Source: a virus. From it: DNA of 64,000 bases. Where the stretch lies: the IMG/VR virus record IMGVR_UViG_3300027849_000009; one strand, 5' to 3'. The first letter of the stretch is position 1, and each line of letters starts with the position of its first letter. Below, piece by piece: positions 1 through 64,000 of the stretch. Position numbers and translations under genes: made by a program. The notes under the pieces are model-generated. The model ran no database searches. It was not told the DNA's origin and was given only the letters and a program-made list of their open reading frames with translations.

Positions 1-1
1 T

Positions 2-2152
2 GGTATAGTGTCTACAGACTACAACACCATCAATGGTGCGCTTACCTCCCTGCAAGCAGATGTTATAGAGTATGCTGATTGGTATGGTCCAACAACTTAT
101 GATCGAGTTAAATGTAAAAGAGACATTGGATATATTCTTGATGCTCTTACTCACGATATAGTATACGAAGGAAATGTTGGCGCAGTTACTTCTGCAAGAG
201 CATACTTTGTTGGTGCTGTAAGTCAATTAGGTGCAGGAGAGAAAGTTGCTACATTAGGTGCATATGCATATCTGAAGACTTCATTAGGACAAGTTGTTCT
301 TGAAACATATACTGGTCAAGATACTAGCGCAGGAACTGCCACATCTACTCAAGCAACTCAGTTGGGTGTTCTTATGGACATCATCACTGAAGTTATTAAC
401 GATGAAAACTTGAACAATCTTGACGCTACTATTCTACCAAACTTTACTGGTGTTAATGCTACAACAGCGGCAAACTACTCTACTATTCTAGCACAGAAAA
501 GCACGATTCAAACACAAGCAATACAGTATGCTAATCTATACGGTCCTTCATCTTACGATAGAACTAGATGTCGTAGAGACATAGGGTTTATTGTTGACGG
601 TCTAACATTCGATATATTATATGGCGGTACACACGCCATGATTATAAACTCTCGTGCATACTTTGTTGGTGCTGCCAGTCAATTAAACCCTGGTGAAGTT
701 GCGGCAACAATTGCAACATACGAGCATATGAGAGACATTATTGGACAACTTCTCACCAATAATCTTACAAGTAATGTTACTACTGCTTCAGCATATGGTC
801 CTAACGAGACTGGTAACTCCGGTCAGTATGCAACTTCAACAGAATCAACCATTATTAATACGCTGATTGACGACCTCTTAGTTGCCACTTTAGTTGCTGG
901 TAATACTGATAGTCTACCAACTGAAGTTGATCCTATTTTATCAAGTCGTGGAGTAAGTGCAGAGTTACGAAACGCGATTGCCGCAGTCAAGAAAGATCAG
1001 GACTTCATTGTTCTTCAGTCCGTAAAGTCTGCTAAGAATACTGGTGACACTACAATCTTCTTGAAGTCTGGCGATTATATAATAAACAATCCTATTAAGT
1101 TACCGCCTAAGACTGCAATCGTTGGTGATAACTTGAGAACAACAACGGTGCGACCTAAGAGTGTTGACTCTGATATGTTCTATATGGACAATGGTTGCTT
1201 CATCAAAGATATTACTTTCCGAGATCATCAGAACTTTGCTGCCTGTGTAGCATATGATCCTAAAGTAGAAAGTGCTGGCGCTGGACCATTCATCGTTCAA
1301 TCACCATATGTTCAGAACTGTACATCTATTACCAACGATGGTATCGGTATGAAGATTGACGGATCTAAATGTTCTGGATTGAAGTCGATGGTATCAGACG
1401 CATTCACTCAGTACAATGCCGCTGGTATTGGTACTTACTTGTTGAATCGTGGTTACGCACAGTTAGTATCAATCTTTACAATCTCAACTCAGACTTCTAT
1501 TCTTGCTGAAACTGGCGGACAATGTTCTATCACGAACAGTAACTCCTCGTTTGGTGACTTCGGATTGATTGCTCGTGGTAGTTCTGAAGTACTATATGAC
1601 GGTAATCTCGATTCAGCAAAACTTTTGTATGATGACACCATTCGTATTTCAGGAGTGATAAATAGAGATAGTGCTGATTACTTCGGAACTGTAGGACAAA
1701 CTAAGTTGCCTAACTACGGCGATGCAATGAAGTTTGACAGTGAAGAATATTACTATACAGTGTTGGGTGTTGATTCAGTCGGTGGCGGTATGTACGACAT
1801 TGCATTCGAACCTGGACTGAATAGTAATAAGAAAGCAAATCAGCAGATGACCTTCAGACAGCGATCTGTTATCACATCATCTTCTCACACATTTGAATAT
1901 GTTGGATCTGGAACTAACACGTTTACTGCTATTCCACAGAATGGTGGTATACCAAGACCAGAAAGAGAAGTAGTATATGACTCTGCAACGAACGAAGGTT
2001 TAGTAGTATTTACATCAACGGATCAGTTAGGCGACTTTAGAATTGGTTCTGAACTGACAATTAAAAGACAGGAAGGTAGAATTGTAGGTGAGACGTTTGA
2101 ACGATCTCTATACGCTATTCTAACTCCATATATTCTAGCACTAGAAGGTTAA
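2..2152 (+). CDS. Large virion structural/fibre protein, 5'-truncated; N-terminal ~152-aa helical repeats and C-terminal pectin-lyase-like beta-helix
   Basis: Frame is open from the window edge; repeat YDRxxCxRDIGxIxDxLTxDIxYxG at nt 98 and 554; TIFLKSGDYIINNPIKLPPKTAIVGDNLRTT is a typical beta-helix start; lies in the structural module. Confidence 0.7.
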   Translation, partial: GIVSTDYNTINGALTSLQADVIEYADWYGPTTYDRVKCKRDIGYILDALTHDIVYEGNVGAVTSARAYFVGAVSQLGAGEKVATLGAYAYLKTSLGQVVLETYTGQDTSAGTATSTQATQLGVLMDIITEVINDENLNNLDATILPNFTGVNATTAANYSTILAQKSTIQTQAIQYANLYGPSSYDRTRCRRDIGFIVDGLTFDILYGGTHAMIINSRAYFVGAASQLNPGEVAATIATYEHMRDIIGQLLTNNLTSNVTTASAYGPNETGNSGQYATSTESTIINTLIDDLLVATLVAGNTDSLPTEVDPILSSRGVSAELRNAIAAVKKDQDFIVLQSVKSAKNTGDTTIFLKSGDYIINNPIKLPPKTAIVGDNLRTTTVRPKSVDSDMFYMDNGCFIKDITFRDHQNFAACVAYDPKVESAGAGPFIVQSPYVQNCTSITNDGIGMKIDGSKCSGLKSMVSDAFTQYNAAGIGTYLLNRGYAQLVSIFTISTQTSILAETGGQCSITNSNSSFGDFGLIARGSSEVLYDGNLDSAKLLYDDTIRISGVINRDSADYFGTVGQTKLPNYGDAMKFDSEEYYYTVLGVDSVGGGMYDIAFEPGLNSNKKANQQMTFRQRSVITSSSHTFEYVGSGTNTFTAIPQNGGIPRPEREVVYDSATNEGLVVFTSTDQLGDFRIGSELTIKRQEGRIVGETFERSLYAILTPYILALEG

Positions 2153-2158
2153 AGAAAA

Positions 2159-2530
2159 ATGGCAACTCCACTTAATACGTTTAAGTCAACTTCTGTTACT
2201 GTTATTGGTAAAGATACACTTACTGGCGACAGCGATTTAGTCTATACTTCACCCAACGGAATCACTGCGATTGTGTTGATGGCGCAGGTAGCGAATATCG
2301 ACTCTGCTGGTACTGGTACTTTCGAGGTTAATATGCAACAGGCGCTGTCACTGGCAGCACCAGCAGTTCACTTGATTAAAGGTTATCGAGTTGCGCCTCG
2401 TGATGCAGTAAGTCTGATTACAGGTAAGTTAATTATTGAAGAAAACGGTGTTATCCGATGCTCAACTAATGCGGCGGGTGCTGGCAAACTGCAATTAACT
2501 CTAAGTTATTTGGAATCATTAAATGGTTAA
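2159..2530 (+). CDS. Small virion structural protein
   Basis: 123-aa beta-rich ORF coupled between fibre genes. Confidence 0.55.
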   Translation: MATPLNTFKSTSVTVIGKDTLTGDSDLVYTSPNGITAIVLMAQVANIDSAGTGTFEVNMQQALSLAAPAVHLIKGYRVAPRDAVSLITGKLIIEENGVIRCSTNAAGAGKLQLTLSYLESLNG

Positions 2531-3767
2531 TACAATAAGCGTTTCGGGCACTTCTCTTACAGGTGGTGTAACAACCAGACCAGTAGCGGATCTCGATTCA
2601 GCAAGATATGAGTATATCACTCTCGACCAGGTAGAACCTAGTCCTGGTAATCCGACAACTGACGGTCAAGTACTTACGTCTACTGCTAGTGGTGTTAGAT
2701 CATGGGGTGATATATCTTCACTTACACTCAATGCACTTAACTTCACATCATTAGATTCGGGTGATACAAGTGATTTCTACGCCCTATTTGTAAAGAATAA
2801 TCCTTTTGATGGTGCTACGGATAGTGTTGTTGTTCGTAAGATTGGTGAAGGCGCATTTGCTGAGACCGCAAACGAGACACTAGCAACTGTCACCGCACGA
2901 GGCGATAGCACACAAGTCTACTCGTACTTCTACGGTGGACTATATGCTGACAGTGTAGTAATTAATGGTAATCTTACTGTTAATGGTACACAAACAATTC
3001 TGAACACCGCAACATTAGAAATCGATGATAAGAATATTGTTATTGCTAAGAATGCAACTAACAATGCAGAAGCAGAAGGCGCGGGTATCACTGTCGCTGG
3101 AGCAAATGCTGGTATCACATATGCATCGACAGATAACTCGTGGAACTTTAACAGACTAACTAATTTCGAAACAGGCATTGCAGTAGTTGGAGCGTCTCTA
3201 TTTGATTCTGCAACCTTCGACAATGATGTTGTAATTAACAACACTGACGCATCTGTTACTGCTACATTCGGTCTATTCTTAGAACCAACAACAAATAGAA
3301 TTGTTAGACGAACTATATCAACTGATATTCTTGACGGTACTGTCAACTTAACACAAGTTACATCGACTGATGCAGACTTAACTTTCTACCCTACATTTGT
3401 TAGTGTACTAAATGGCGGAGATAGTGCTAAAGTTGATAGTGCATTATCATACAATGCTTCTAGTAATAGACTCACTATGGGTAACTTATCTCTTACTCAG
3501 ATTGATAGAGATCAAGAGACTGATAACGTACTTGTACTTTCTGCACAGGACTCTGTGTCATTCAGAGAATTGGGTAATCTTGCATATTTGGATTCAGAGC
3601 AAGACACACTACAATCTGTAACCAGTCGAGGTGCTACTAGTACAGATAGTGTCACATTCGCAGGCGTAACGGTAGAGGGTGATCTCGAAGCGAGTCGCTA
3701 CTTTGATGCGCAAGCAAGACAATTAGTAATTTATGACTCAGTAGGTGCTACTCTCTGGGGTGCATAA
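2523..3767 (+). CDS. Tail fibre-like protein
   Basis: T/S/G/A-rich; INGNLTVNGTQT and IDDKNIVIA fibre motifs; shares the YPTFV..DSA..LSYN module with the 6788 and 8423 ORFs. Confidence 0.7.
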   Translation: MVNTISVSGTSLTGGVTTRPVADLDSARYEYITLDQVEPSPGNPTTDGQVLTSTASGVRSWGDISSLTLNALNFTSLDSGDTSDFYALFVKNNPFDGATDSVVVRKIGEGAFAETANETLATVTARGDSTQVYSYFYGGLYADSVVINGNLTVNGTQTILNTATLEIDDKNIVIAKNATNNAEAEGAGITVAGANAGITYASTDNSWNFNRLTNFETGIAVVGASLFDSATFDNDVVINNTDASVTATFGLFLEPTTNRIVRRTISTDILDGTVNLTQVTSTDADLTFYPTFVSVLNGGDSAKVDSALSYNASSNRLTMGNLSLTQIDRDQETDNVLVLSAQDSVSFRELGNLAYLDSEQDTLQSVTSRGATSTDSVTFAGVTVEGDLEASRYFDAQARQLVIYDSVGATLWGA

Positions 3768-3794
3768 ATAAACAGATAAACTTTGGAGTAACAA

Positions 3795-6787: not shown

Positions 6788-8380
6788 ATGGCAGGCGTAA
6801 AGATAACAGATTTAGACTCGGCATTCGGTGCACCCGCAATCGATGACGTTCTAATCATAGTAGATACAAGTACTAACTTGACCAAGCAGATTCGCGCGGA
6901 TGATTTGCTCCTTGGGCAGACTGCTGAAAAAGCGAACACTATATTGGTCTCGACAGACACGACATCAACCGAAGCGAAGATTCATTTCGGTAATGGCGCA
7001 TCAGGTACGTATGACTCTGTTGGTATTAGCAACTCGCTTACATACGATGCCGCAACAGGTTCTTTGACAGCACTTGCATTCGAAGGTAATGGTTCTGCTT
7101 TAACTGACTTGCCTCAGAATGATCCTGTCGTGAATGCTGTTGATGCTGGCACAGATGCTAATCCATATTATATAATGATTCGCAACAGTGCGACTGGATT
7201 AGACAGTGTACATACTCAGAGCAACTTAACATCTAATCCAAATACTGGTGTATTAACTACTCCTTTCTTTGCTGGTAACGGTTCGTTACTAACAGGTGTT
7301 CTTGCTGATAGTGCGACAAATGCTGACAGTGCAAACTTTGCTACCGAAGCGACTCATGCTCTATATGCTGACAGTGCTACACAGGCAGCAAGTGCTTTAT
7401 TTGCTCTAAATGCAACTCAAGCAGTTAATGCTGATAGTGCGACAGTCGCCACGTCCTCTTTGACCTCTGCTCTTGCTACATTTGCTCTTGCTGCCGACAG
7501 TGCCGCCAGCGCAAGTAATGCAGTGCAAGCACAATATGCTGACACCATTGCAACTACTACTGCCGCCTCCGAGACAACTTTGTATCCTTTCATGGGTACT
7601 GCTCAGACTGGATTACAAGCAACTCTTGCCGCTGATGCCGCATTAACATATAACGCATCGAACGGTAGATTATCTTCAACAGCATTTTCTGGTGATGGTT
7701 CTTTACTTACTAACTTACCTATTCCTGGTGGTGGTAGTATTGCTAACGCATTGAATGTACTTCCTTCTGCTGTAGATGCTTCACACTCCATTCTATTTGT
7801 TCAGAGTGCGACTGGTGTAGATAGTGTAAACACAGATGCGGGTTTACTGTACAATCCATTAAGCAACTTATTAACTGCTGGTGCTTTCTCTGGTGAAGGT
7901 AAACTACTCACTGAAGTACCTGCAACAAAGATTAACTCTAACTTTAATCCTACTACTGGCACTCAGTATATAATGTTGAAAGCATCTCAGACGGGTTCTG
8001 ATAGTGTATCGACAGATGGTGGTATCGTATTTGATGCAGGAACTAATACACTAACTGCTACAAATCTTGCTGGTAATGGTTCGAACATAACAGACGTAGC
8101 GGCAGTCTCTGCTACTAACGCTGCCAACATAGCGATCACCACGATCAATGATAGTGCAACATACTATGTGCATCTTGGTTCGGCAGCATCTGGTAATGAT
8201 AACACTAACGTGGATCTCAATCTAACATACAATCCTTTGCAGAATCTATTGAATAGCGGTATCGCGTATACTACAGATAGCGCAGGATTATGGAACGGTG
8301 CGGCACCCACAACTCTTGACTCAGCAGTCAATCGATTTGCGATATTACTTAAAACATTAAACAGTCAAGTAGGCGCTTAA
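6788..8380 (+). CDS. Tail/neck fibre protein with internal ~60-aa repeats
   Basis: Repeated module ..SATG.DSV.T...L.YNP...LT...F.G.GS.LT; Ala/Thr-rich; own late promoter. Confidence 0.75.
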   Translation: MAGVKITDLDSAFGAPAIDDVLIIVDTSTNLTKQIRADDLLLGQTAEKANTILVSTDTTSTEAKIHFGNGASGTYDSVGISNSLTYDAATGSLTALAFEGNGSALTDLPQNDPVVNAVDAGTDANPYYIMIRNSATGLDSVHTQSNLTSNPNTGVLTTPFFAGNGSLLTGVLADSATNADSANFATEATHALYADSATQAASALFALNATQAVNADSATVATSSLTSALATFALAADSAASASNAVQAQYADTIATTTAASETTLYPFMGTAQTGLQATLAADAALTYNASNGRLSSTAFSGDGSLLTNLPIPGGGSIANALNVLPSAVDASHSILFVQSATGVDSVNTDAGLLYNPLSNLLTAGAFSGEGKLLTEVPATKINSNFNPTTGTQYIMLKASQTGSDSVSTDGGIVFDAGTNTLTATNLAGNGSNITDVAAVSATNAANIAITTINDSATYYVHLGSAASGNDNTNVDLNLTYNPLQNLLNSGIAYTTDSAGLWNGAAPTTLDSAVNRFAILLKTLNSQVGA

Positions 8381-8422: not shown

Positions 8423-9085
8423 ATGGCAGATATTAAGATATCGGCACTACCAGTACTAACATCAGCGGTTGATTCTGATGTTATTGTTATTAATGACGTA
8501 AGTACTGGAACGACGAAGAAGATTACCCGTGGTCTTTTGTTGAATCATCTAGCAAAGCAACTACGGGACTCTGCTGATGGCGGTATTGTCATTCCGAATG
8601 GCGACCTTACTCTTGCTAACGAACTAATCGCTGGTGGTGATATCTCAACTTCGGGTACAATTAACTTTGGTATCCTGCGAGATTATGTTAATAACACATA
8701 TGCAACTTCAATAGTTGATTCTGCTGGTGGTTATGATCTAAGTGATAGTGCTTTAACTACAACTTTGTCAGTTGTTCAATATCTTGCAACACACACTTCT
8801 GATCTAATTAGAATTGATTCTGCTGGACCTACACTCACTACACTATATCCAGTAATGACAAGTATTGTTGCGGGCGAAGATAGTGCGAGAACAGATACAC
8901 AACTATCATACAATCCTCAGACAAATATTCTAACTGCGGGTTCTTACTCTGGTTTAGGCAACTTACTTGGTTACACAGCAGATAGTGCAGGACTCTGGAC
9001 TAGTCCGGCACCAACAAATGTTAAAGATGCGATAGACAGACTAGCATTAACAGTCAAAACACTGAATAGTCAAGTAGGCGCTTAA
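8423..9085 (+). CDS. Short fibre protein, paralogue of 6788..8380
   Basis: Similar N-terminus (MADIKISAL vs MAGVKITDL); identical C-terminal KTLNSQVGA; late-like TCTAAATA at 8388. Confidence 0.7.
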   Translation: MADIKISALPVLTSAVDSDVIVINDVSTGTTKKITRGLLLNHLAKQLRDSADGGIVIPNGDLTLANELIAGGDISTSGTINFGILRDYVNNTYATSIVDSAGGYDLSDSALTTTLSVVQYLATHTSDLIRIDSAGPTLTTLYPVMTSIVAGEDSARTDTQLSYNPQTNILTAGSYSGLGNLLGYTADSAGLWTSPAPTNVKDAIDRLALTVKTLNSQVGA

Positions 9086-12000
9086 TGCACAACGTCTTTA
9101 CGGATAATAGAAGAAGACATCTTAATCTGCGCGAACCGCAGGTGCAGAGTGTTTTGCCTGAGCATTTTGCTGATGCTTATCCCAAGTTCATAAAACTTCT
9201 TGAAGAGTATTATGAGTGGCAAGGTGAGTATGAAGCGACCGAACTTCTCAATCATTTATTCGCATCTCGTGATATTAACGAGACTGACGTTACTCTACTC
9301 TCATTCATTGAAGATGAGTTACTTCTGGGCGAGAATTACTTCGAAGGTTTTGGACAATCAGAGGCAGAGAAACGTGCTGCCGCAAACTTCTCTAGCACAT
9401 TGTTTCGTGCCAAAGGATCTAAGTTTGCTATTGAGTGGTTCTTCAGATCGTTCTATGGTTTGGATGCCGAAGTTCTTTATCCCAAAGAAGACATATTCAA
9501 TGTATCAGATGGCGAGTCTCGTATTGGTCCTGACTATCTAAACTTCTTAACTGATGATAAACTGTATCAGACATATGCTCTGCTTATTCGTGTAGGTATT
9601 CCTATCTCACAATGGTCAGAAGTATTTAAGAAGTTTGTGCATCCTGCGGGAATGTATCTTGGCAGTGAAGTACTACTTGCTTCAGATAATATCAGTAACA
9701 TGAATTTACCCAATGATAGTGCAGTAGCAAGAACTTCTACGTCATTCACTCTCACAAATGATGGTCCTACTGATGAAGGACAAACAACTAACTTTAGAGT
9801 AGTCGCCAATAATGTGCCCGAGAAAACTGGTGTTGTATATGCCTATGTTACTCACGGTTCGACTACAGATGCAGATTTCCCTCTGAATGCATTTACCATA
9901 CCTGCTCACGGACCTCTCAATCGCTATCCTGCTATTAACAAGACAATACCTCTACTCACAGACAGTGGCGGTGCTACATTAATAAACATTAATAACGACA
10001 GCGCAACTTTCTCAATAAGAAGTTGGGTTGATAGTGATGGTGGTGCTAGTAGCGAAAACTACCTACTACATATTATGGATCATGAAGGTAGGGCATTAGA
10101 AAGTACAACTGTCACTATCAACAATGTTGAACCATCATACTCATTAGTTCCTAGTAGCGAGACACCTAATGAAGGTGATGTGATAACATATACAATCACA
10201 GGATCAAACACACCTTACGATGGTGAAACTTCTTTGTTTTACCATCTAGTTCATGGCGGCACAAACGATTCAGATTTTACAGTTCCTCCTCAACAAGTTG
10301 TCAATGATCAGACTGCCGCTTCAGAAATAACTTTATCTGGCGGCACAGGTTCGTTCTCACTTAAAACTATTATCGACGGCGCATCTGATGATGCCGAAGA
10401 ATTCACAGTTAATATTACTGATTCTAAGAAGTTACAAGTTGCAACCAGAACAGTTTCAGTACAGCAAGTCGCAACCTCTTTTGTAGTCAGTGCCGACAAT
10501 ATAGTTGAAGGTAATTCTCTCTTACTTACTGTTGTGGTAAATACGGCAGAGATTGGAGATTCACTGACATATGTTATCACTAATGGCGATGCTAGAATTG
10601 GACTTCTAACAGAAACCTTTACTGCTCCCTCTGAATCATTCGTTAAAGTTATACCCACTTCAGTGAGTAGTTTATATCAAGGAACTATTACACCTACTAT
10701 CAGTGTAACAAACAATGTAACTGGTATTACAGTGACAACGACCTTTCAATTGTCAGATGTGACTCCTGTATGGGACATGACCTCAGAACCAGAGTTCGCT
10801 GTTCAAGGTGACCAAATTACTTTCAAAGTTGACGGAACAAATCTTCCTGATCCTACTACTGTATGGTTCGAAATACTTCACGGCACAACTGCTAATGCGG
10901 ATTTCACAACAACACCTCCGCAGACAGGCACACGTTCATCGACTGCTATTAGTGATCCAGGTGATACTGTCTTTCAGATTACTGTTGATAGTGATGGTGA
11001 AGTTGCTGATGAATCATTCACTGCGCGTCTATATGACGCCGACGCTGGCGGTAATCTGTTAGCATCTATTCCTTACGTGATACAAGGTACTAACACTTCA
11101 TATGTTTTAACGCCTAGTGTCACTACAGTAAATGAAGGTGGTCAAGTTACATTCACCTTTACTACTAATCAACCAGACGGAACATACTATTGGTATATAC
11201 CGACATATTCTGGGTATACAATACAAGTCGAAGACTTTAAGTTTCCGAACGGTGGTTTCGGTAATGGTTATCCTATAGGCACAAATGATAATAGATATTC
11301 GTTTGTTGTAACTGGCGGTACTGGTACAATTCTTGTTGAATTGCTTAATGATACGCTTACCGAGGGCGCAGAATCATTCAATTGTTTAGTATCAACATCT
11401 GCTAATGCAAGCGTACCTCCTATTGCGTCTAGTGCAAATGTTACAGTAAATGATACGTCCATAACAATCTATTCTGTTACTTCTAACAATCCTGTTGAAG
11501 GCAGCACTCTGGATATAGTGGTTACTGCGACAAACCAAACTAATCCAAACAGCGAGACACTGTATATCGAGGTTACTGGATCCCCAGTAGTTGGTAGAAT
11601 ACCTACGCAACAATTTGCATCAACTAGTAGTTCGTATATTCGAAATATATTTGTGAGTACAACTTCTAGTACTACATATCAAGGTACTTCTGTCGGTGGA
11701 GTTTCTGTTTCACGTGGTAACTATGCATCTTTAGGCGGAACATTAATAGATTCTGTAACATTCCAACTAGTGGATCAAGCGCCAGCAATGACGTTGACTC
11801 CTAATGCCACGACTGGTACTGAAGGCGACACAGTAACATATACTGTTGGTGGAACTAACATTCAGAACGGTACTTACTACTGGTACGATCCTGCAATAGT
11901 TAAAACACTTGACTGTCCCAATGGTCGAAGTTCTGGCACGTCACAGATCGATCACCAAGGTCCTTCAAATCTTGGTTTAGATTTAGAAGTAGGAATGTCA

Positions 12001-12966
12001 ACTGATGATGCTGACATACCAGGCACAATAACTAGTGTAATTAATACCGGTTCTACTACTGGTTATATAACTATGTCAGAACCGACAACTAGAGCAACAG
12101 TTACAGGTGAACATATAAAGTTTGCTTTCCCTGCGGACTGGGCAGATGCAACCGAACTCTATGGTACTGTAGCAGTATCAAGCAACGCGGGCACTTTCGA
12201 GTTAGACACTCTTGTGAATTCTGATTTCAATGATGACGTATATTCTATGAGAGTCTTTGATAATTTATTCTCATATAATACATATCTTGGCGCCAATCTC
12301 GGACTTGCTACTGCCGCAACTGTTACTATTGCAGACACTAATCCGGCATCTGTGAATTTACAATATAATACTGGCAACTCTCTCTCAGCAAGTTTCTTTA
12401 ATGTTTTTGGAAATGCGCAAGTTACAACTCTAATGACTGAGTACAATGATACCGGTCAAGGAATCGTGTGGAAGAATTTTACTCCGCATTACGCTTCAAG
12501 CAGTCCCACTGAGGATTTCGGTAATCCGGCGTATGATAATAACTGGATTCTTCCTGTCGAAGCAAGGCAAGATTATATTGGTTCGAATTACCAGATGAAT
12601 GTTAGATTTTATAACGATTCACAAAGAACTATTGCTACAGTACCTGATCAATCAACTGGTGGTGGTTCGGGTTATTCATACGTAAATGGCCAGCGTTTTG
12701 TGGACGGTGTAGAAGTTGATACCTGGGACAATTCAGCAACTCAATGGTGGGTGGTTGGGTCGACTACAGAAAGTGGCACACATTATTTTCGACATATAGC
12801 ACAAACAACGCCTACCGGCGGTAGCGCCAATGTTAGTAATTTCAGATGGGTAACAGTAACCATTAAAGAATTTAGTGGGACTTTAGGTACAGGTACAACT
12901 CTTTTGACATATAACTATCAATCGTATGTCAGTGCCGTCACAGAAACCTGGCAGGGTGGATTTTAA
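9085..12966 (+). CDS. Baseplate wedge (gp7-like) N-terminal domain fused to tandem Ig/Calx-beta-like repeats
   Basis: LPEHF..YPKFIKLLEEYYEW, KGSKFAIEWFFRSFYG, VHPAGM; then repeats such as NEGGQVTFT and DTLTEGAESF. Confidence 0.65.
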   Translation: MHNVFTDNRRRHLNLREPQVQSVLPEHFADAYPKFIKLLEEYYEWQGEYEATELLNHLFASRDINETDVTLLSFIEDELLLGENYFEGFGQSEAEKRAAANFSSTLFRAKGSKFAIEWFFRSFYGLDAEVLYPKEDIFNVSDGESRIGPDYLNFLTDDKLYQTYALLIRVGIPISQWSEVFKKFVHPAGMYLGSEVLLASDNISNMNLPNDSAVARTSTSFTLTNDGPTDEGQTTNFRVVANNVPEKTGVVYAYVTHGSTTDADFPLNAFTIPAHGPLNRYPAINKTIPLLTDSGGATLININNDSATFSIRSWVDSDGGASSENYLLHIMDHEGRALESTTVTINNVEPSYSLVPSSETPNEGDVITYTITGSNTPYDGETSLFYHLVHGGTNDSDFTVPPQQVVNDQTAASEITLSGGTGSFSLKTIIDGASDDAEEFTVNITDSKKLQVATRTVSVQQVATSFVVSADNIVEGNSLLLTVVVNTAEIGDSLTYVITNGDARIGLLTETFTAPSESFVKVIPTSVSSLYQGTITPTISVTNNVTGITVTTTFQLSDVTPVWDMTSEPEFAVQGDQITFKVDGTNLPDPTTVWFEILHGTTANADFTTTPPQTGTRSSTAISDPGDTVFQITVDSDGEVADESFTARLYDADAGGNLLASIPYVIQGTNTSYVLTPSVTTVNEGGQVTFTFTTNQPDGTYYWYIPTYSGYTIQVEDFKFPNGGFGNGYPIGTNDNRYSFVVTGGTGTILVELLNDTLTEGAESFNCLVSTSANASVPPIASSANVTVNDTSITIYSVTSNNPVEGSTLDIVVTATNQTNPNSETLYIEVTGSPVVGRIPTQQFASTSSSYIRNIFVSTTSSTTYQGTSVGGVSVSRGNYASLGGTLIDSVTFQLVDQAPAMTLTPNATTGTEGDTVTYTVGGTNIQNGTYYWYDPAIVKTLDCPNGRSSGTSQIDHQGPSNLGLDLEVGMSTDDADIPGTITSVINTGSTTGYITMSEPTTRATVTGEHIKFAFPADWADATELYGTVAVSSNAGTFELDTLVNSDFNDDVYSMRVFDNLFSYNTYLGANLGLATAATVTIADTNPASVNLQYNTGNSLSASFFNVFGNAQVTTLMTEYNDTGQGIVWKNFTPHYASSSPTEDFGNPAYDNNWILPVEARQDYIGSNYQMNVRFYNDSQRTIATVPDQSTGGGSGYSYVNGQRFVDGVEVDTWDNSATQWWVVGSTTESGTHYFRHIAQTTPTGGSANVSNFRWVTVTIKEFSGTLGTGTTLLTYNYQSYVSAVTETWQGGF

Positions 12967-16054: not shown

Positions 16055-16067
16055 AAATAGTGGTATG

Positions 16068-35800: not shown

Positions 35801-36517
35801 ATGATTGAAGCATATATGGGAGTTGATCTAAACAATCCACTCGCAGTAAAGTACAACGAATTATCCCTCAAATCTTTTGAATGCGTATCTGACGTACTCA
35901 ACATAAACGTAATACAATGTATAACACCAGATACATTATTCCCACATCTTACGTTATCAAAACATAAAGACAGATCACCACAAGAAATAGCACATATTCA
36001 TTCAACCTTCAGACTCATGCGACGAATCTCTCGTGGCGAACGTCTATGGATTATGGAGCATGATGCATATTTAATCCCGGAACAGGTTGACATGTTCAGG
36101 CGTATTATGTTAAAATATACAGAGATGCCAACATGTAATATTGGTATTGCGCTTGAGTGTTACACAGTTATACCACAGATTGCAGAGATGTTTTGTGAAC
36201 ATGTTATTAATGACGAGATGCACAACTGTCGTGGACCTATGAGTATACTCCACTCTGTCACTGACTTTTACTGTAAAGCGAACAACAATAATCGATACAA
36301 TGTTTATTGGCCAAAGAAGGGCATGGATAACAAAACTGGCGTTTCAGTTAATGTTTCTCATGCTCACACTCGACCCAGTGTAGTACTTGATAGTCCTATT
36401 ACTCAGTTAATAGATGAGAATCAAGGTTGCACAGTAACAGATAGAACTAGATTCCAAGGAAAAGAACGATACTACAATTCAAAGACACACCCAAACTTTC
36501 ACTTCGTTACATTATAA
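35801..36517 (+). CDS. Glycosyltransferase family 25-like protein
   Basis: [23 protein letters not shown] resembles the GT25 pattern E.GC..SH..LW...ILEDD. Confidence 0.5.
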
Positions 36518-46702: not shown

Positions 46703-46708
46703 GTTTCA

Positions 46709-47215: not shown

Positions 47216-47216
47216 A

Positions 47217-48293: not shown

Positions 48294-48295
48294 AC

Positions 48296-49045: not shown

Positions 49046-49158
49046 TTATCAAGATAGAGGTCGAGATCGATACTAATGATAACCGCGACCAGCAATCTAT
49101 AATGGAATTAATAGAAATACTTAAAGACTTTGGAAGTCGAGAAACGGAGGAAGAGTAA
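49042..49158 (+). CDS. 38-aa hypothetical protein (not in ORF track)
   Basis: ATGA and TAATG overlaps on either side. Confidence 0.5.
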   Translation: MIIKIEVEIDTNDNRDQQSIMELIEILKDFGSRETEEE

Positions 49159-50273: not shown

Positions 50274-50730
50274 TATGAAAGAAAAGTTCGTGAAAGCATA
50301 TATGGATACTGCACATAGATTTGCACAGTTAAGCACTGCAAAGAGATTACAAGTGGGAGCGATCATTGTAAAAGATGATCGTATCATTTCTATTGGTTAT
50401 AATGGTATGCCTTCAGGTTGGGATAATGTGTGTGAACATCATCTTTACACAAATGAATTTGGTAGAGAGAAATCCTATACTAAGTCGCGACCCGAAGTTC
50501 TTCATGCTGAAGCGAATGCAATCACCAAGGTTGCACGTAGTTCCGAATCAAGTAAAGGTGCAACTCTATTCTGTACTCACACTCCTTGCATGGAATGTGC
50601 TAAGTTAATATATCAGAGTGGTATCGATACCGTCTATGTTGATACCGAGTATGTTGCAAGTAAGGGCAGCGGCAAGCAGTTTCTAATTGATTGTGGCGTA
50701 GAGGTAATTCAGTATGACAATGCCATGTGA
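50266..50730 (+). CDS. cd: dCMP deaminase
   Basis: SIGYNG, HAEANAI, PCMECAK. Confidence 0.92.
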   Translation: MNNMKEKFVKAYMDTAHRFAQLSTAKRLQVGAIIVKDDRIISIGYNGMPSGWDNVCEHHLYTNEFGREKSYTKSRPEVLHAEANAITKVARSSESSKGATLFCTHTPCMECAKLIYQSGIDTVYVDTEYVASKGSGKQFLIDCGVEVIQYDNAM

Positions 50731-50908
50731 AAGAACCCGAGCAGTTAATAATACTAGACAGTTTCTGGTTGACTTGCAGTCAGACCTCAGTGCACCTGAT
50801 GCAGTAAGGAAAGAAGCATCCCGATGCCTCAGGCACTATCCTGGCGAATACTATATGGAATTATCACAAGAACATTTACCAGAAGTGTGGGGAGAACCTA
50901 ATGAGTAA
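50714..50908 (+). CDS. BPSL0761-like small protein
   Basis: MTMPCERTRAV..CLRHYP. Confidence 0.6.
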   Translation: MTMPCERTRAVNNTRQFLVDLQSDLSAPDAVRKEASRCLRHYPGEYYMELSQEHLPEVWGEPNE

Positions 50909-51188
50909 GTTTGTTATGGTCGATTGTATCAGCACCTATCGTATGAGATATTGTGTCGAATTGAATGACAATGATCCGAAAGAGTGGGCGCTGGATACTG
51001 TAGTTATGGAGGAAGCGAAAGAGTTTTCTCAAGAGCATTTAGGTGAAATGATAACATCTCATAGAGTATTATCTGATAAAGAAGAGGCATTCGAAATATT
51101 TCGAGAAGATAACGAATACCTTAAAGACATAAGCGAAGAGCGTCTTACTGAGATTGGAATAACTTTGATCGAGGACTATACTAAATGA
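50901..51188 (+). CDS. Hypothetical protein
   Basis: GGAG RBS; EFSQEHLGE. Confidence 0.6.
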   Translation: MSKFVMVDCISTYRMRYCVELNDNDPKEWALDTVVMEEAKEFSQEHLGEMITSHRVLSDKEEAFEIFREDNEYLKDISEERLTEIGITLIEDYTK

Positions 51189-51559
51189 AACATTACTACA
51201 AATTTATATCTACACCTTATGAGTGTGATCTAGGCAGTTCGGTCAACAATCACATAGAGTTTTCTATTACTGATCGTGATGTTCCTCTACATGATATGCT
51301 AGAACAGTTTAAGTATTTCTTGCAGGCATCAGGTTACAATATATACCCTAATGAACATATTGAGATTGTAACTGACGAAGAAAGGTTCGAATATCCCTCT
51401 GAGCATGAATGGAAAGATGTGACCCGAGTAGAAGTCATTGATGATAATGGACGTGCTTATGTTGGTTATGGATTAGAGAGTGTATCACATTCTGTACAAG
51501 ATGATGGACAAACCCTTAAAATATTTGTAGAGAATGAGAAGCATGATAGTACCAGATAA
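51185..51559 (+). CDS. Hypothetical protein (two small domains)
   Basis: FLQASGY; VTRVEVIDDNGRAYV, QDDGQTLKIF. Confidence 0.6.
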   Translation: MKHYYKFISTPYECDLGSSVNNHIEFSITDRDVPLHDMLEQFKYFLQASGYNIYPNEHIEIVTDEERFEYPSEHEWKDVTRVEVIDDNGRAYVGYGLESVSHSVQDDGQTLKIFVENEKHDSTR

Positions 51560-51950
51560 GACCTATAAGATTGAAGCGGCAAACAAAAAGTGTGTAAGAC
51601 TCTCTGATTGTTATGAACATGATAACGGCGATGAAGTCTGGTTGCAAAAGATATATCGCAATGGTGCATTTATTATTACACCTCAAGATTGGGATGAATG
51701 TGATGCAATTCAGGCAGCACTAGACGGTGATGTTATTTCACTTGACGAGTTTTCAGAATGGGAATTTGATTCAGTGTATGATTTATGCTCCGAAGATTCG
51801 ATAGGCGACACCGAGAAGATGGATGAAGCACTTGACACTGATGATTGGGATGACGAAGAAGAGTGGTTAGAAAACAACGACTTCAATAACACCAAGTCCT
51901 TCTACGAAATTCAAGATGGTATAATCCTGAGTGATGACGAACATTCATGA
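51534..51950 (+). CDS. Highly acidic hypothetical protein
   Basis: D/E/W-rich C-terminal half. Confidence 0.55.
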   Translation: MRSMIVPDKTYKIEAANKKCVRLSDCYEHDNGDEVWLQKIYRNGAFIITPQDWDECDAIQAALDGDVISLDEFSEWEFDSVYDLCSEDSIGDTEKMDEALDTDDWDDEEEWLENNDFNNTKSFYEIQDGIILSDDEHS

Positions 51951-51996
51951 GATAAATGGTTAAACTGTTGACAACCTCTCGCTTTCTTGATATAAT
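51928..51996 (+). promoter_or_regulatory. Class B early cassette promoter (left half displaced by 3 bp)
   Basis: ATTCAtgagataaatgg at 51943, 20 bp to TTGACA 51968, TATAAT 51991. Confidence 0.8.
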
Positions 51997-52031
51997 AGTA
52001 CCCTAATCAAATGAAGAGAGTGAGAAAGATT

Positions 52032-52397
52032 ATGTGTGGAACTTATACTGGTGAACATGAAGAGACTAAACCCACTAATGAATTTAGATATGCAAACTAC
52101 TACGGTTACTCGGACGTTAGTCCGTATGAGATTACTAAAGTAATTTCTAGGCAAACTATGGAAGTTCGTCCTATGCGGGCGACTCTTGATCCTAACTTCA
52201 AATGTGAAACAGTTGTCGGTGGATTCTTCGGACACACTACTAACAACAACTCTCAAACTTACACCTACGAATCACTTGCAGATGCTCCTACGATGAGAAT
52301 TCGATACAGCAAAGCGAAACGTGGTTGGTTCTCTGCTTGCGGTCAACGTCATCTTTTAGAAGATGCTCCTGTTCGCTTTTATGACTATAACTTTTAA
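52032..52397 (+). CDS. Hypothetical early protein
   Basis: First gene after the promoter; GYSDVSPYEI. Confidence 0.65.
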   Translation: MCGTYTGEHEETKPTNEFRYANYYGYSDVSPYEITKVISRQTMEVRPMRATLDPNFKCETVVGGFFGHTTNNNSQTYTYESLADAPTMRIRYSKAKRGWFSACGQRHLLEDAPVRFYDYNF

Positions 52398-52407
52398 GGA
52401 GATTGAA

Positions 52408-52629
52408 ATGAGTAGAATGATCCAGAATGCAGTTGCGGTTGACAAAGTTCATAAACTAGTTGACCAGATGACAAAACTTATCGAGAAGCAAGGTGCTGAT
52501 CAGTATCAGATTAACGATTCCTCGTACTCTCTTGGTTATCTCAAGGGTATGTTGACCACGCTATGCTGTAAGAATCCTCAAGTACTTGACCACGTTATCG
52601 ATACGATTGACTATTTAGAAGAAGCATAA
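52408..52629 (+). CDS. Hypothetical protein
   Basis: AAGGAG RBS; YSLGYLKGML. Confidence 0.6.
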   Translation: MSRMIQNAVAVDKVHKLVDQMTKLIEKQGADQYQINDSSYSLGYLKGMLTTLCCKNPQVLDHVIDTIDYLEEA

Positions 52630-52632
52630 AAG

Positions 52633-52697
52633 GTTATGTTCTTATAACAAAGTATTCTAAGTGAAGTGTTGACAGCACCCTTAGAATATGAGATAAT
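52633..52697 (+). promoter_or_regulatory. Class A early cassette promoter
   Basis: GTTATGTTCTTATAAC 52633-52648, 20 bp, TTGACA 52669, 17 bp, GATAAT 52692. Confidence 0.85.
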
Positions 52698-52728
52698 GGT
52701 TGTACAAATTGAGTTGAGAGAGTTTATT

Positions 52729-53139
52729 ATGTTTTGTATTGAAGGTCGTCATGCCAAACCAGAAATCGTCGAAGAGTATGTTGCGCGTCTTATGGGCGCT
52801 CTAAAAATTCATCGATTCACTTCTAAGTTGGTAACAGTCAAGTTCAAATCTGAACTGCCTAGTTACGCTCAAGGTCTATGTGAGGGCGATAAAGATTACG
52901 CCTACATTCAGATCGGCAAGTTTGATCAGACCTTCCTTCAACAGATGCAAGCACTCGCTCACGAGATGGTTCATGCTCGACAGTTTTTACGTGGTCAATT
53001 GACTGCTGAAGGTGTGTGGAAGTGGAAGGGTCGCAATGCTGACAACTACGCTTACACTAACCAACCTTGGGAGAAAGAAGCATATCGCCTTGAGCGTGAA
53101 CTCTTTCTCGATTGTTTCCCCTTTGAGAAGATGGTATAA
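52729..53139 (+). CDS. Zincin-like metallopeptidase
   Basis: LAHEMVHARQ (HExxH), PWEKEAY. Confidence 0.8.
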   Translation: MFCIEGRHAKPEIVEEYVARLMGALKIHRFTSKLVTVKFKSELPSYAQGLCEGDKDYAYIQIGKFDQTFLQQMQALAHEMVHARQFLRGQLTAEGVWKWKGRNADNYAYTNQPWEKEAYRLERELFLDCFPFEKMV

Positions 53140-53141
53140 TT

Positions 53142-53576
53142 ATGGGACATTATGACGAACAACGCGAAGCAGATCGAAAGCAAAATATGCCACCGAATCT
53201 TATTCGCAATGCAATACAAACGCCTGACGGCACGATCTTAGAATCGACACATCGGCACGACTACAAAGAATATAAGGATGCCAATGGGTTGACTTATATG
53301 GTTGATGGTGGATTAGAATACTGTAGACGTAATCGACAAGACTCTGAACCTTATATTGAAATGAATCTGTATGATGATGAACCACATTCTGTACAGCGTG
53401 AAGTTCTGAAGTGGGGAACGTATGGTATCAATGGTGATCAACCACTCAAATGGTTATCTGTCGCTGAAATGGAGACTGGTCACATTGAAGCAGTGGTAAA
53501 GATGTCGAATGTGAGACCACAAATACGTGACTGTATGAAAGAAGAACTCGGACAACGGGAGATGAGTGGTGAATAA
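53142..53576 (+). CDS. Conserved hypothetical phage protein
   Basis: ESTHRHDY, MVDGGLEY, WGTYGING. Confidence 0.65.
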   Translation: MGHYDEQREADRKQNMPPNLIRNAIQTPDGTILESTHRHDYKEYKDANGLTYMVDGGLEYCRRNRQDSEPYIEMNLYDDEPHSVQREVLKWGTYGINGDQPLKWLSVAEMETGHIEAVVKMSNVRPQIRDCMKEELGQREMSGE

Positions 53577-53931
53577 ATTAGAAACTGCATTTGAACGTCT
53601 ACGTGCCGAGGGTTGGTATTGTGCATGGGGTTTACCTTGCTGTCAGACTTGCGCATGGGATGAAGTATCCTGCGAAGATGATATTGATCTCGAAAAGGTA
53701 TTGTTCAATCACGAGCAGGATATCGAAGAAGAAGTGGATTATGATGATGATGAAATGGAGTGGGATCGGCACTTCTACGAAATTGATGCTATCAATGGAA
53801 GTCTGTTTTGTTTCAGCGGAAGTAAAGAGGGTGTTAAAAATCTCATCGAAGTGTTGCCTATCTTTGAAGAGTGTGGAGTAAAGGTGCTTTGGAATCAGAA
53901 TGGTAATTCCAGAATAGAGTTGGAATGGTAA
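53566..53931 (+). CDS. DUF6891-like protein
   Basis: AFERLRAEG, CCQTCA, FNHEQD. Confidence 0.55.
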   Translation: MVNKLETAFERLRAEGWYCAWGLPCCQTCAWDEVSCEDDIDLEKVLFNHEQDIEEEVDYDDDEMEWDRHFYEIDAINGSLFCFSGSKEGVKNLIEVLPIFEECGVKVLWNQNGNSRIELEW

Positions 53932-53934
53932 TAT

Positions 53935-54411
53935 ATGACTAAGAGTATTATAGTCGTGGATGATTTTCTCGAGGAACATATCATTGATTTGATGATAGAG
54001 TTCTATGATTCGAGTGCCTATATTCCTGATTATGATAAGTTAAGCAAACTCGACTGTGGTGAATGGAAACCTTCTAACGAATTAGTTCAACACGTTTGGG
54101 ATGCGCAGAATGAGCAGTCGATGAAAATTGCGAATGCTGTAGTACATTGGGGAGACATCTATCGCTGGCCGATTGGTTCTGATATGGGTCTCCATAATGA
54201 TGTAGCGAGTAAACATACTGTATTCACCTCGATATTATATTTGAATGATGATTTCGAAGGTGGGTTTACAGAGTTTGCGGACGGTACAAGAGTAGCACCG
54301 AAGAAAGGACGTATTGTGTTCTATGATGGAATACATTACTGGCACAAAGTAACACCGATAACGAAAGGAATACGATACACATTTGCATCGTGGTACCGAA
54401 CAAACAATTAA
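53935..54411 (+). CDS. 2OG-Fe(II) oxygenase (prolyl-4-hydroxylase-like)
   Basis: HND, LYLNDDFEGG, WHKVTPI, GIRY. Confidence 0.88.
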   Translation: MTKSIIVVDDFLEEHIIDLMIEFYDSSAYIPDYDKLSKLDCGEWKPSNELVQHVWDAQNEQSMKIANAVVHWGDIYRWPIGSDMGLHNDVASKHTVFTSILYLNDDFEGGFTEFADGTRVAPKKGRIVFYDGIHYWHKVTPITKGIRYTFASWYRTNN

Positions 54412-54432
54412 ATTTAATAATGAGGCAGTAAA

Positions 54433-54678
54433 ATGATTAGTAGTCCAGCAGACCGTAAGAAAGTAAAAGACTCCATCAAAGAGTTATCCGATTCAATGCT
54501 ACGTGTTGATAGTGAGAAAGATTTGCAGAAAGACATCGTTCAGGTGACGTTCGAAGATACTGGTGTTGATAAGAAGCATATCCGCAAACTTGCGGTGATC
54601 TATCATAAGCAATCAATGAATGATGTTAAGTCAGACTACGAAGACCTCGAAGCACTGTACGACGAATTGTTCAAATAA
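54433..54678 (+). CDS. DsbA-like (T4) / GapR-like dsDNA-binding protein
   Basis: IKELSDSMLRVDSEKD, IRKLAVIYHKQ. Confidence 0.7.
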   Translation: MISSPADRKKVKDSIKELSDSMLRVDSEKDLQKDIVQVTFEDTGVDKKHIRKLAVIYHKQSMNDVKSDYEDLEALYDELFK

Positions 54679-54682
54679 GTGG

Positions 54683-54711
54683 TTGCATATGACACAAGGA
54701 TGTGTTATAAT
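54683..54711 (+). promoter_or_regulatory. Sigma70 promoter
   Basis: TTGCAT-17-TATAAT with extended TG. Confidence 0.75.
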
Positions 54712-54735
54712 ATCATATATTATGAGGAGTTAGTG

Positions 54736-54921
54736 ATGGGACGTTCACAGTCAAAAAGAAGCAATCGTAAGAATACCGCGAAGGATTTCAGTAACACTAA
54801 TCCAGTAGCAAAGAACATGGAGAAGTTCAACAAACCTGCTACACACGTTGATAAGAAGAAAGAATCTAAGATCAAGGGTCTCGATATAGATAAAGCGTGG
54901 TTAGACGATGAAATACGGTAG
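54736..54921 (+). CDS. Small basic hypothetical protein
   Basis: GAGGAG RBS; NPVAKNMEKFNKPATH. Confidence 0.6.
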   Translation: MGRSQSKRSNRKNTAKDFSNTNPVAKNMEKFNKPATHVDKKKESKIKGLDIDKAWLDDEIR

Positions 54922-56589: not shown

Positions 56590-56929
56590 TACAGGTTGTT
56601 CGTTACTTCCTCAAGCACCTAAAGTTATTCCAGTTGAGATTCGTACTATAGAGGTAAAGATACCTATTGTGCATCCTACTCTGCCTCGTGCAATCGATCT
56701 GAAAGAACCATACTTCTATGTGGTATCAGATAAGAACATGGATACGTTTATCGCAGAGATGGAGAAACTAAATGGTACAGTAGTCTTCACTGCAATGACA
56801 ATTGATGACTATGAGTTGATGGCATATAACATGCAGGAAATAAAACGCTACATAGGACAGTTAAAGGAAGTTGTGGTATACTACCGAACTATTAATGACG
56901 AACCCGAAGAGGTCGTAGAGGAAAAATAA
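56537..56929 (+). CDS. o-spanin (Rz1-like lipoprotein)
   Basis: Lipobox LISTGC, Pro-rich linker, overlap with the i-spanin. Confidence 0.75.
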   Translation: MYLTASKKILLLSAILISTGCSLLPQAPKVIPVEIRTIEVKIPIVHPTLPRAIDLKEPYFYVVSDKNMDTFIAEMEKLNGTVVFTAMTIDDYELMAYNMQEIKRYIGQLKEVVVYYRTINDEPEEVVEEK

Positions 56930-57384
56930 TGTACGATTACAAAGTAAAAATCGTGAGAGTGGTCGATGGCGATACAGTGGATGTTGATATTGACTTAGGT
57001 TTTGGTATCTGGATGCTTAAAGAACGTGTACGTATGATGGGCATCGACACACCTGAATCACGTACTCGCGATAAGGTAGAGAAGAAGTTTGGTCTTGCCG
57101 CTAAGAAACATCTCAAAGAAATGTTAGGTAAGACAGCGATTCTTAGGACTCAGATCGATAGGTCCGGAGAAGACAAGAAAGGTAAGTTCGGTCGTATTCT
57201 AGGGGACTTCGATGTTCAAGTTGAACCATCTATCGGTCAGTATGATACAATGAAGAGTGCTTGCCAGATTATGATTGATGACGGTCATGCAGTATCGTAC
57301 TTCGGTGGTAATAAAGAAGAGAATAAAGCAAAGCATTTAGCGAACCGTGAACGCCTGATTGCCGAAGGTGTTGTCGTTCTATAG
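56929..57384 (+). CDS. Thermonuclease (SNase-like)
   Basis: RVVDGDT, RMMGIDTPE, GKFGRILG. Confidence 0.88.
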   Translation: MYDYKVKIVRVVDGDTVDVDIDLGFGIWMLKERVRMMGIDTPESRTRDKVEKKFGLAAKKHLKEMLGKTAILRTQIDRSGEDKKGKFGRILGDFDVQVEPSIGQYDTMKSACQIMIDDGHAVSYFGGNKEENKAKHLANRERLIAEGVVVL

Positions 57385-57508: not shown

Positions 57509-58138
57509 ATGTTCATGAAGATCGCAGATTCTACCCTTTACGAGATGTACGTAACTAAGCATCAAATCAAGCAGAACAAAGGCGAAGCACGTGGTTCTAA
57601 GGACATGGAGCGCACCAAGTGCTACGATGCAGAGTGGAGATTCCAACGCTCTGTTCAGATCCCTCTATTCAAGTCTATCGCAGAAGCAGAAAAATTCACT
57701 AAGAAAATCTACAAGTCTAAGTTGTGGGAGAAGATGTGGAAAGAATCTGTCGAGAACAATGTCGGTAGAATCTTCAACAACTATCCTGACGTAGTACAGA
57801 TGAAGCGCGCCTCAGGAAGAACTGCTGGTTCTACTAACGGTAAGACTGTATACTTAAATGTCAATTCTGGTTTAGATATGTACACTTTGTTGCACGAACT
57901 TGCTCACACTCTTGGTCACATGCACCACGGACGTTCGTTTCGTCAAGCACTGTTGAAACTTGTAGGACAGTTCATGGGTGCCAAGTTCAAGAAAGTTCTA
58001 GCAGAATCATTCAAGAAAAACAAACTCAAGTGTGGCGATGCTCGTAAAGCAATGTCATTTGAGAACTGGGTTGCTTCTCGTGATCGAATGGAGAAGATTC
58101 GTCAAGAGAAAGGAATAGGGGAGTTCGCACCATTATGA
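57509..58138 (+). CDS. SprT/zincin-like metallopeptidase
   Basis: LLHELAHTLGHMHHGRSF. Confidence 0.75.
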   Translation: MFMKIADSTLYEMYVTKHQIKQNKGEARGSKDMERTKCYDAEWRFQRSVQIPLFKSIAEAEKFTKKIYKSKLWEKMWKESVENNVGRIFNNYPDVVQMKRASGRTAGSTNGKTVYLNVNSGLDMYTLLHELAHTLGHMHHGRSFRQALLKLVGQFMGAKFKKVLAESFKKNKLKCGDARKAMSFENWVASRDRMEKIRQEKGIGEFAPL

Positions 58139-58503
58139 GACCAATATGCTTAAATTACGGTTGTGAGAAACTAGTGACCCATAACGGTAGCAGATGGCGA
58201 TCCTTCTGTGCCCGTTGTCATCGTGCTGGATATGGTGCCGCGACACTAGCAGAAGGTGTAACTGCATTCAAGACTGGTGTGTGTAGTAATCAGAACGGTC
58301 AACTTGGATTCGGATGTGCAATCGATTATGTTAAAGCACCGTGGGCATTGGGACAGACTCAGATCGATCATATATCTGGTGACTACTTTCATAACGATCC
58401 AATCAACTGTATGGAACTATGTGATATGTGCCATACTTACAAGGGTAAACTGTCAGGCGATTTCAAGCGACAGAATAAATATATGTATAAAAAAACGAAA
58501 TAA
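58135..58503 (+). CDS. HNH endonuclease-like protein
   Basis: QIDHISGDYFHNDPINCMELCDMCH plus N-terminal Cys clusters. Confidence 0.75.
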   Translation: MRPICLNYGCEKLVTHNGSRWRSFCARCHRAGYGAATLAEGVTAFKTGVCSNQNGQLGFGCAIDYVKAPWALGQTQIDHISGDYFHNDPINCMELCDMCHTYKGKLSGDFKRQNKYMYKKTK

Positions 58504-63587: not shown

Positions 63588-63596
63588 AAATAACAC

Positions 63597-63625
63597 TTGA
63601 CATTCCTTATAAATCCTAGTATAAT
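63597..63625 (+). promoter_or_regulatory. Consensus sigma70 promoter with no clear downstream gene
   Basis: TTGACA-17-TATAAT-gcactta. Confidence 0.75.
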
Positions 63626-63744
63626 GCACTTAACGCTTTTATGAATACTAAATATTATCTTTTCAACAAATATCGCAAATACCAATTCTATCTTGAGAGA
63701 AAGGGTAATACTATAGATGTATATGTTTAGTACTATAAATCCTA

Positions 63745-63810
63745 TGAATGATGACTATTCATGAGATAAATGGTAATTAGGTTGACGATGTTGTGATATC
63801 ATGATATAAT
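63745..63810 (+). promoter_or_regulatory. Class B early cassette promoter
   Basis: TGAAT-N7-ATTCA 63745-63761, 20 bp, TTGACG 63782, 17 bp, TATAAT 63805. Confidence 0.85.
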
Positions 63811-63838
63811 AACACTATATTAACCAATTGAGAAAATT

Positions 63839-64000
63839 ATGAATTTATATGATATGAACGATACAAACTTTGATAACTACCAAAACTACATTATGGACAA
63901 TGCTGATCTTTCTGAGGTCACCATCTGTAACGGAGACACACTCTTGGAGGCAGCAGAAAATTCGTACCTCCTAGAAGAGTTCATGCAATCACCCCAATAC
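63839..64000 (+). CDS. Hypothetical early protein, 3'-truncated
   Basis: MNLYDMNDTNFDNYQNYIMDNAD..ICNGDTLLEAAE; open to the window end. Confidence 0.65.
   Translation, partial: MNLYDMNDTNFDNYQNYIMDNADLSEVTICNGDTLLEAAENSYLLEEFMQSPQY

Follow-up and report, generated by a model that had tools for sequence, protein, structure and literature searches.

Restriction-site avoidance is well known from phages, classic cases being the GATC-free Staphylococcus phage K and the GGCC-poor Bacillus phages, and its occurrence in phage genomes was reportedly surveyed by Rusinov and colleagues in 2018. Here we describe an avoidance of this kind that is directed at the word RGCY (AGCT, AGCC, GGCT and GGCC). It was found in a 64,000 nucleotide stretch of the virus record IMGVR_UViG_3300027849_000009, hereafter called the window (the whole stretch of DNA that was analysed), which belongs to an abundant, uncultured T4-like myovirus of the ocean with a genome of about 151 kb. 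Two further described systems come close to it. Chlorovirus IL-3A has the endonuclease R.CviJI, which targets RGCY, and the methylase M.CviJI, which targets RGC(Y/G) (PMC3526282). In a metaepigenomic study of Pacific seawater, RGCY carrying N4-methylcytosine (m4C) was the top methylated motif of viral metagenome-assembled genomes (MAGs), occurring in nine MAGs that were mostly myovirus-like (Hiraoka et al., 2022; PMC8919816).

An exhaustive count over the window, which has a GC content of 40.0%, revealed no AGCT, no AGCC, no GGCT and four GGCC:

1..64000, both strands: RGCY purge in genes and intergenic DNA, 4 sites observed

Base composition predicts a total of 633 sites, and first- and second-order Markov models predict 511 and 317, respectively. 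The 89 called genes all lie on the + strand and cover 95% of the window, and shuffling of their synonymous codons predicts 455 +/- 16 sites, with a minimum of 404 in 200 trials. This null model is well-behaved, giving observed/expected ratios (O/E) of 0.96-1.1 for unpurged relatives. The depletion extends to the 3.6 kb of intergenic DNA (0 sites vs about 26 expected), to the accessory genes at 45-64 kb (2 vs 127) and to the exported cluster (0 vs 23). An earlier note on this DNA had listed the same three missing words and four GGCC, at 12688, 36309, 45711 and 54167, had guessed at several hundred expected sites and had claimed avoidance in the accessory genes and the exported cluster. The count returned identical sites and the null models bore out the rest; a Markov-corrected tetranucleotide count of the window, which the note had proposed as a check, and the codon shuffle place the depletion far beyond composition and dinucleotide or codon bias.

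Among the NGCN words, RGCR and YGCY are over-represented (AGCA 406, TGCT 415) and YGCR is normal. The remaining 4-mer palindromes show O/E values of 0.81-1.04 under a null model that forbids RGCY, except CCGG (0.57) and AATT (0.55). RGCY is the sole 4-mer class purged from the window, and it forms a reverse-complement-symmetric set that is lost from both strands and from non-coding DNA. The purged word is identical to the target word of R.CviJI, with all four words removed together, the nuance being that leftover GGCC lies almost only in the context YGGCCR.

The removal can be followed through codon choice. After A or G, Ala is encoded by GCA or GCG in 457 of 457 cases, and after T the commonest Ala codon is GCT. 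Met-Ala is written with GCR (33/33) and Trp-Leu with TTR (10/10), and in all 75 Lys-Pro, Glu-Pro and Gln-Pro pairs the first codon is NNA. These contexts had been pointed out before for Ala, Met-Ala, Trp-Leu and Lys/Glu-Pro, and all of them hold without exception. Three of the four surviving sites are found where the protein forces them: the window contains three Trp-Pro pairs in total, each at a surviving GGCC, and a check of the reading frames agrees with the earlier assignment of three sites to TGG CCN and of 12688 as unforced.

12688..12691, + strand: sole unforced RGCY, GGC CAG (Gly-Gln), near the C-terminus of a 1293-amino-acid baseplate/fibre protein (9085-12966)
36309..36312, + strand: GGCC forced by Trp-Pro (TGG CCA), context TGGCCA, gene 35801-36517, open frame of 241 codons
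45711..45714, + strand: GGCC forced by Trp-Pro (TGG CCA), gene 45536-45778
54167..54170, + strand: GGCC forced by Trp-Pro (TGG CCG), 2OG-Fe(II) oxygenase gene 53935-54411

The 1293-amino-acid protein carries a Baseplate_wedge domain. At Trp-Pro sites Pro is always encoded by CCR, which makes up 43% of Pro codons overall.

Comparison with orthologous genes shows how the sites were lost. At 450 positions where five RGCY-normal relatives have an RGCY, the window carries dozens of different replacement words; all four positions of the word are altered, and about half of the replacements keep the spanned residues identical. Neither a systematic miscall nor one mutational process alone produces such diversity. 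Contigs from other metagenomes that are nearly identical to the window also lack AGCT, AGCC and GGCT, namely L001 (98.3% identical over window 15102-27128), L093 (99% over 43414-54761) and L184. Over its span, which includes 45711, L093 has 2 GGCC, the same as the window. The window differs from L001 and L093 by 279 single-nucleotide polymorphisms, none of which creates an RGCY where 9.8 would be expected (P ~6e-5). Seven of these changes would create the word on their own, and each of them is offset by another difference directly beside it, as in ACTGCC vs ACAGCA (YGCY to RGCR). Purifying selection thus continues to operate within the species. Since AGCC and its complement GGCT are both absent although all genes lie on the + strand, the agent reads duplex DNA and not mRNA. 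Taken together, the depletion is real, selective, synonymous-level and strand-symmetric.

Relatives of the window differ sharply in this trait. Of 80 relatives compared by their capsid gene, L001, L015 and L032 are purged (O/E of 0.02 or less), each having a sister with normal content, so that the capsid tree implies no fewer than 3 changes of purge state. Among 82 relatives compared by DNA polymerase, 43 have an O/E of 0.12 or less; they fall into several large clades, and no fewer than 5-6 changes are required on this tree. The window lies within a purged clade of nine, whose sister lineage (L191 and L210, the latter in genome G013) and next outgroups (L193, L194) have O/E values of 0.85-0.98, so that the purge is the derived state. 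On these trees, the purge is recurrent among the relatives.

Two long relatives illustrate the contrast. G012 (116 kb, 90% nucleotide identity) has no AGCT, AGCC or GGCT and 13 GGCC, and within genes 12 RGCY are found vs 814 expected. In G013 (153 kb, 91% complete) there are 1415 RGCY vs 1388 expected within genes, with only 20 GGCC. Single words can also be purged alone, AGCT in L013 and GGCC in L002/L193, L191, L210/G013 and G016. Leftover GGCC is found in the context YGGCCR in 4 of 4 cases in the window, 12 of 13 in G012, 20 of 23 in G014 and 9 of 10 in G016. Together with the exclusive use of CCR at Trp-Pro sites, this hints at a target that depends on the flanking bases or at sites that are locally protected. 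The alignment with G012 has a gap over window 11459-12966, the stretch that holds the unforced site at 12688; this C-terminal part of the baseplate/fibre protein may be a swapped receptor-binding tip.

Cultured relatives show a uniform, partial RGCY depletion with O/E values of 0.2-0.5:

HTVC008M, host SAR11: RGCY O/E 0.33
Melnitz, host OM43: RGCY O/E 0.44
S-SKS1, host Synechococcus: RGCY O/E 0.21
S-SSM7, host Synechococcus: RGCY O/E 0.44
C48C1, host not recorded: RGCY O/E 0.49

RGCY is not the only restriction-type word that is missing. For words of 6 bp, expectations were taken from a null model that forbids RGCY, except for CTGCAG, for which the plain codon shuffle was used:

AACGTT, window: 0 observed vs 23 expected
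AGATCT, window: 0 observed vs 21 expected
TCTAGA, window: 0 observed vs 21 expected
GTTAAC, window: 1 observed vs 18 expected
CTTAAG, window: 1 observed vs 12.5 expected
CTGCAG, window: 3 observed vs 23 expected (plain codon-shuffle null)

AGCGCT, GACGTC and ACGCGT are likewise absent from the window. Each long relative (G012-G016 and C48C1; loci L264-L302) avoids 6-bp palindromes in a combination of its own, even at 90% identity. Like the window, G012 lacks AGATCT, TCTAGA, CTTAAG and AGCGCT, and it keeps 20 AACGTT and 10 GTTAAC. G013 is without AACGTT, AGATCT, AGCGCT and all GCWGC, and G014, G015 and G016 lack differing combinations of TACGTA, ACCGGT, ACTAGT, ATTAAT or CCGG; in G016, AAGCTT is absent despite 341 AGCT. 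The words HGCAGC/GCTGCD occur 2 times in the window vs 61 expected and 6 times in G012. By contrast, GGCAGC/GCTGCC reaches or exceeds its expected number (26 vs 16 in the window, 52 in G012). GCRYGC is found once in the window vs 18 expected. Avoidance of the Cac8I-type word GCNNGC was considered and rejected, the missing subset being GCRYGC only. Changing host restriction repertoires would be expected to produce such a shifting mosaic among close relatives. RGCY is the most frequent member of the mosaic.

In kind, this is well-known restriction-site avoidance. As in the known cases, a reverse-complement-symmetric short word has been removed genome-wide through synonymous choice, and several further palindromes are purged in a pattern that varies between close relatives. 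Unlike in the known cases, the target is a degenerate 4-mer class, the purge of a word expected every ~140 bp is near-absolute, and this purge is seen repeatedly within a large clade of uncultured ocean myoviruses. Our literature search returned no report of RGCY avoidance in phages. It likewise turned up no precedent for this particular word, for a purge so nearly complete, for its repeated origin in abundant ocean myoviruses or for a link with viral RGCY methylation.

The window comprises the structural and replication core and an accessory block of the T4-like myovirus. Its exact capsid protein is found on 60 contigs (IMG, ENA and Tara), the longest of 151 kb. The window is syntenic with 'Phage C48C1', on which the literature search returned nothing and whose capsid protein is 68% identical; the next-closest capsids (57-59%) are those of the OM43 phage Melnitz, the SAR11 phages HTVC008M and Mosig, and cyanomyoviruses. 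No psbA was found in five long relatives, and the group is therefore probably not cyanophage. Pfam or PHROG scans covered about 46 of the 89 open reading frames of the window, and most of the core genes outside this set can be named from their synteny with C48C1. The scans found neither a DNA methyltransferase nor a restriction-type nuclease. Genes relevant to the following discussion are:

39014-39601, + strand: Methyltransf_24 protein (Pfam/PHROG scan)
49158-50273, + strand: MetK, S-adenosylmethionine synthetase (Pfam/PHROG scan)
50266-50730, + strand: dCMP deaminase (Pfam/PHROG scan)
56929-57384, + strand: SNase, of a generic non-specific family
58135-58503, + strand: Cys-rich protein of 122 amino acids with a DH..N..CxxCH motif, HNH-like candidate (Pfam HNH E 0.054, sub-threshold)

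The dCMP deaminase gene follows the MetK gene with an 8-base overlap. In the structural region, a 530-amino-acid protein (6788-8380) weakly resembles the Chlorovirus glycoprotein repeat PF06598, at an E-value of 1.9e-5 that does not reach the curated threshold.

An RGCY-targeting nuclease is the sole agent that fits the depletion. We put at roughly 60% the probability that the phage avoids an RGCY-specific, CviJI-like double-strand endonuclease, most likely a Type II restriction enzyme of its marine hosts. In such a scenario the hosts, probably heterotrophic, would carry a Type II enzyme with RGCY specificity, and each RGCY site would make cleavage of incoming, unmodified phage DNA more likely. 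Exposed lineages would shed sites via synonymous and flanking-base changes, and at the endpoint only protein-forced sites (Trp-Pro, TGG CCN) would remain. Neither PF01555 (N4/N6) nor PF00145 (C5) methyltransferases were found in G012-G016. The normal RGCY content of G013 is therefore not owed to self-methylation, and the simplest reading is that the hosts of G013 lack the RGCY enzyme. It is plausible that the phage DNA is not shielded by hypermodification, given that numerous further restriction-type palindromes are missing and that the gene scans revealed no cytosine methyltransferase. A further search for PF01555 in contigs of ten relatives, mostly fragments, gave matches only in G002 and G003, both partly RGCY-depleted genomes.

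The RGCY-methylating viral MAGs share environment, virus type and motif with this phage (PMC8919816), which by analogy would imply the same selective agent. They keep RGCY, whereas this phage and its clade delete the sites, with no N4 or C5 methyltransferase detected in the scanned reading frames or in G012-G016; this does not fit a self-methylating myovirus with an N4 methyltransferase and retained sites. The published motif shows that RGCY is a target of attack among viruses of this kind, some of which respond by methylation rather than deletion. The CviJI system differs in being virus-encoded and in belonging to a eukaryotic algal virus, and YGGCCR is seemingly tolerated here; an adjacent C5 methyltransferase, as in a CviJI-type system, was found neither in the scanned window genes nor in G012-G016. 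We also considered an RGCY methylase in the slot just after the DNA polymerase. This slot holds the Methyltransf_24 gene in the window, a Dam-class D12 gene in C48C1 (L081 33480-34364) and two PF01555 genes in G003 (L090 4659-7010), of which the one tested is CcrM-like and adenine-specific. The proteins of the window and C48C1 are mutually unrelated and the window protein is unrelated to the tested G003 protein as well, and the candidate was rejected.

Several points weigh against a bacterial restriction enzyme as the agent. The characterised RGCY enzymes known to us come from chloroviruses, and we know of no bacterial enzyme of this specificity; to our knowledge, SAR11 and OM43 at least carry few restriction systems. 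Partial depletion is nevertheless seen in every cultured relative, on SAR11, OM43 and Synechococcus alike. Furthermore, about 8 unforced GGCC remain in the window and G012, where AGCT, AGCC and GGCT are zero in 180 kb. Given these sites and the YGGCCR residues, the target is not simple, uniform RGCY: the agent may spare YGGCCR, the sites may be protected, or an older GGCC pressure may have been followed by a newer one. Viral motifs are also rarely common to prokaryotic MAGs, although 5-methylcytosine (m5C) is poorly seen by the method (PMC8919816). Host m5C would be invisible to the metaepigenome approach, whose data are therefore compatible with either a host or a phage as the owner of the nuclease. 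Regarding the restriction pressure inferred in the earlier note, the selective depletion and the nuclease as the only fitting agent stand, and neither a host nor a bacterial RGCY endonuclease was found. MetK gave no support as a host lead: its best bacterial match is a Marinimicrobia MAG (63% identity) with 31% GC, an RGCY O/E of ~1 and no C5 methylase. The proposal that RGCY avoidance is a host-prediction signature found no support: the trait is polyphyletic, having arisen several times, and phages of unrelated hosts (SAR11, OM43 and Synechococcus) share it in part.

Explanations without nuclease selection invoke a base-calling artefact at modified sites, context mutation such as deamination of methylated RGCY, or selection at the RNA level. 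Some sequencing platforms do produce systematic miscalls at methylated motifs, and the window encodes a dCMP deaminase. Yet the replacements are diverse, affect all four positions and are often synonymous, and the enriched flanking changes to RGCR and YGCY (O/E 1.48) are not products of deamination. The same RGCY-free sequence was moreover recovered from independent metagenomes, the survivors are the amino-acid-forced sites (three Trp-Pro) and one other, 12688, and both orientations are purged with all genes on one strand. These explanations are close to refuted and we assign them hardly any probability. A phage-borne nuclease, the main rival, has more in its favour and is still unlikely in our view; it would either let this phage degrade host DNA while its lack of sites keeps it safe or, as a nuclease and m4C methylase of competing marine myoviruses resembling the chlorovirus CviJI system, destroy co-infecting phages. 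The RGCY enzymes known to us are indeed viral, and phages of three unrelated host groups are partially depleted. RGCY is also the commonest viral methylation motif, and viral motifs are rarely common to prokaryotic MAGs (PMC8919816). On the other hand, the scanned genes of the window yielded only the non-specific SNase and the sub-threshold HNH candidate, and the five long relatives G012-G016 lack PF01555 and PF00145 methyltransferases. No gene occurs throughout the purged genomes (window/G012, G014, G015) while missing from G013, G016 and C48C1, which are unpurged or partly depleted. A phage using an enzyme of its own would not be expected to put up with 4-13 sites, and the lineage-specific 6-bp purges resemble changing host repertoires. 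The HNH-like candidate has no PHROG match and no PDB sequence match, and tblastn detected no copy in G013-G016 or C48C1 (G012 does not extend to it), ruling it out as the cause of the purge in G014 and G015. The suggestion that a nuclease of this phage cuts host RGCY therefore found no support, the SNase being generic, the HNH match weak (E 0.054) and no shared gene purge-specific. By analogy with the CviJI system, marine T4-like phages might wield RGCY nucleases and m4C methylases, so that the purges of their neighbours would record co-infection exclusion and not host immunity, an idea that we consider quite improbable.

RGCY might also be a composite of an older, HaeIII-like GGCC pressure and newer, AluI-like AGCT and AGCC/GGCT pressures. 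The purge of GGCC alone in the sister lineage (G013, L191, L210) and in G016, and of AGCT alone in L013, would fit this, as would the leftovers in the clade of the window, which are all GGCC and partly unforced. However, no enzyme that recognises the asymmetric 4-mer AGCC/GGCT is known to us, and several independent lineages purge all four words together. Methylation in marine viruses was also recorded for RGCY as one motif (PMC8919816). A composite origin is accordingly rather doubtful, and a single RGCY-specific nuclease, most likely of the hosts, remains our preferred reading.

CviJI-type enzymes are useful near-random cutters, and a bacterial source of such an enzyme would be of practical interest. 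Since close relatives differ sharply in their purged words, oligonucleotide signatures are risky for host prediction. The purged and unpurged pair G012 and G013 represents a natural experiment, both for finding the enzyme and for timing the recoding of ~1% of the bases of a phage. Finally, the repeated purges together with the published viral RGCY methylation imply a widespread, uncharacterised RGCY-cutting activity in the surface ocean.

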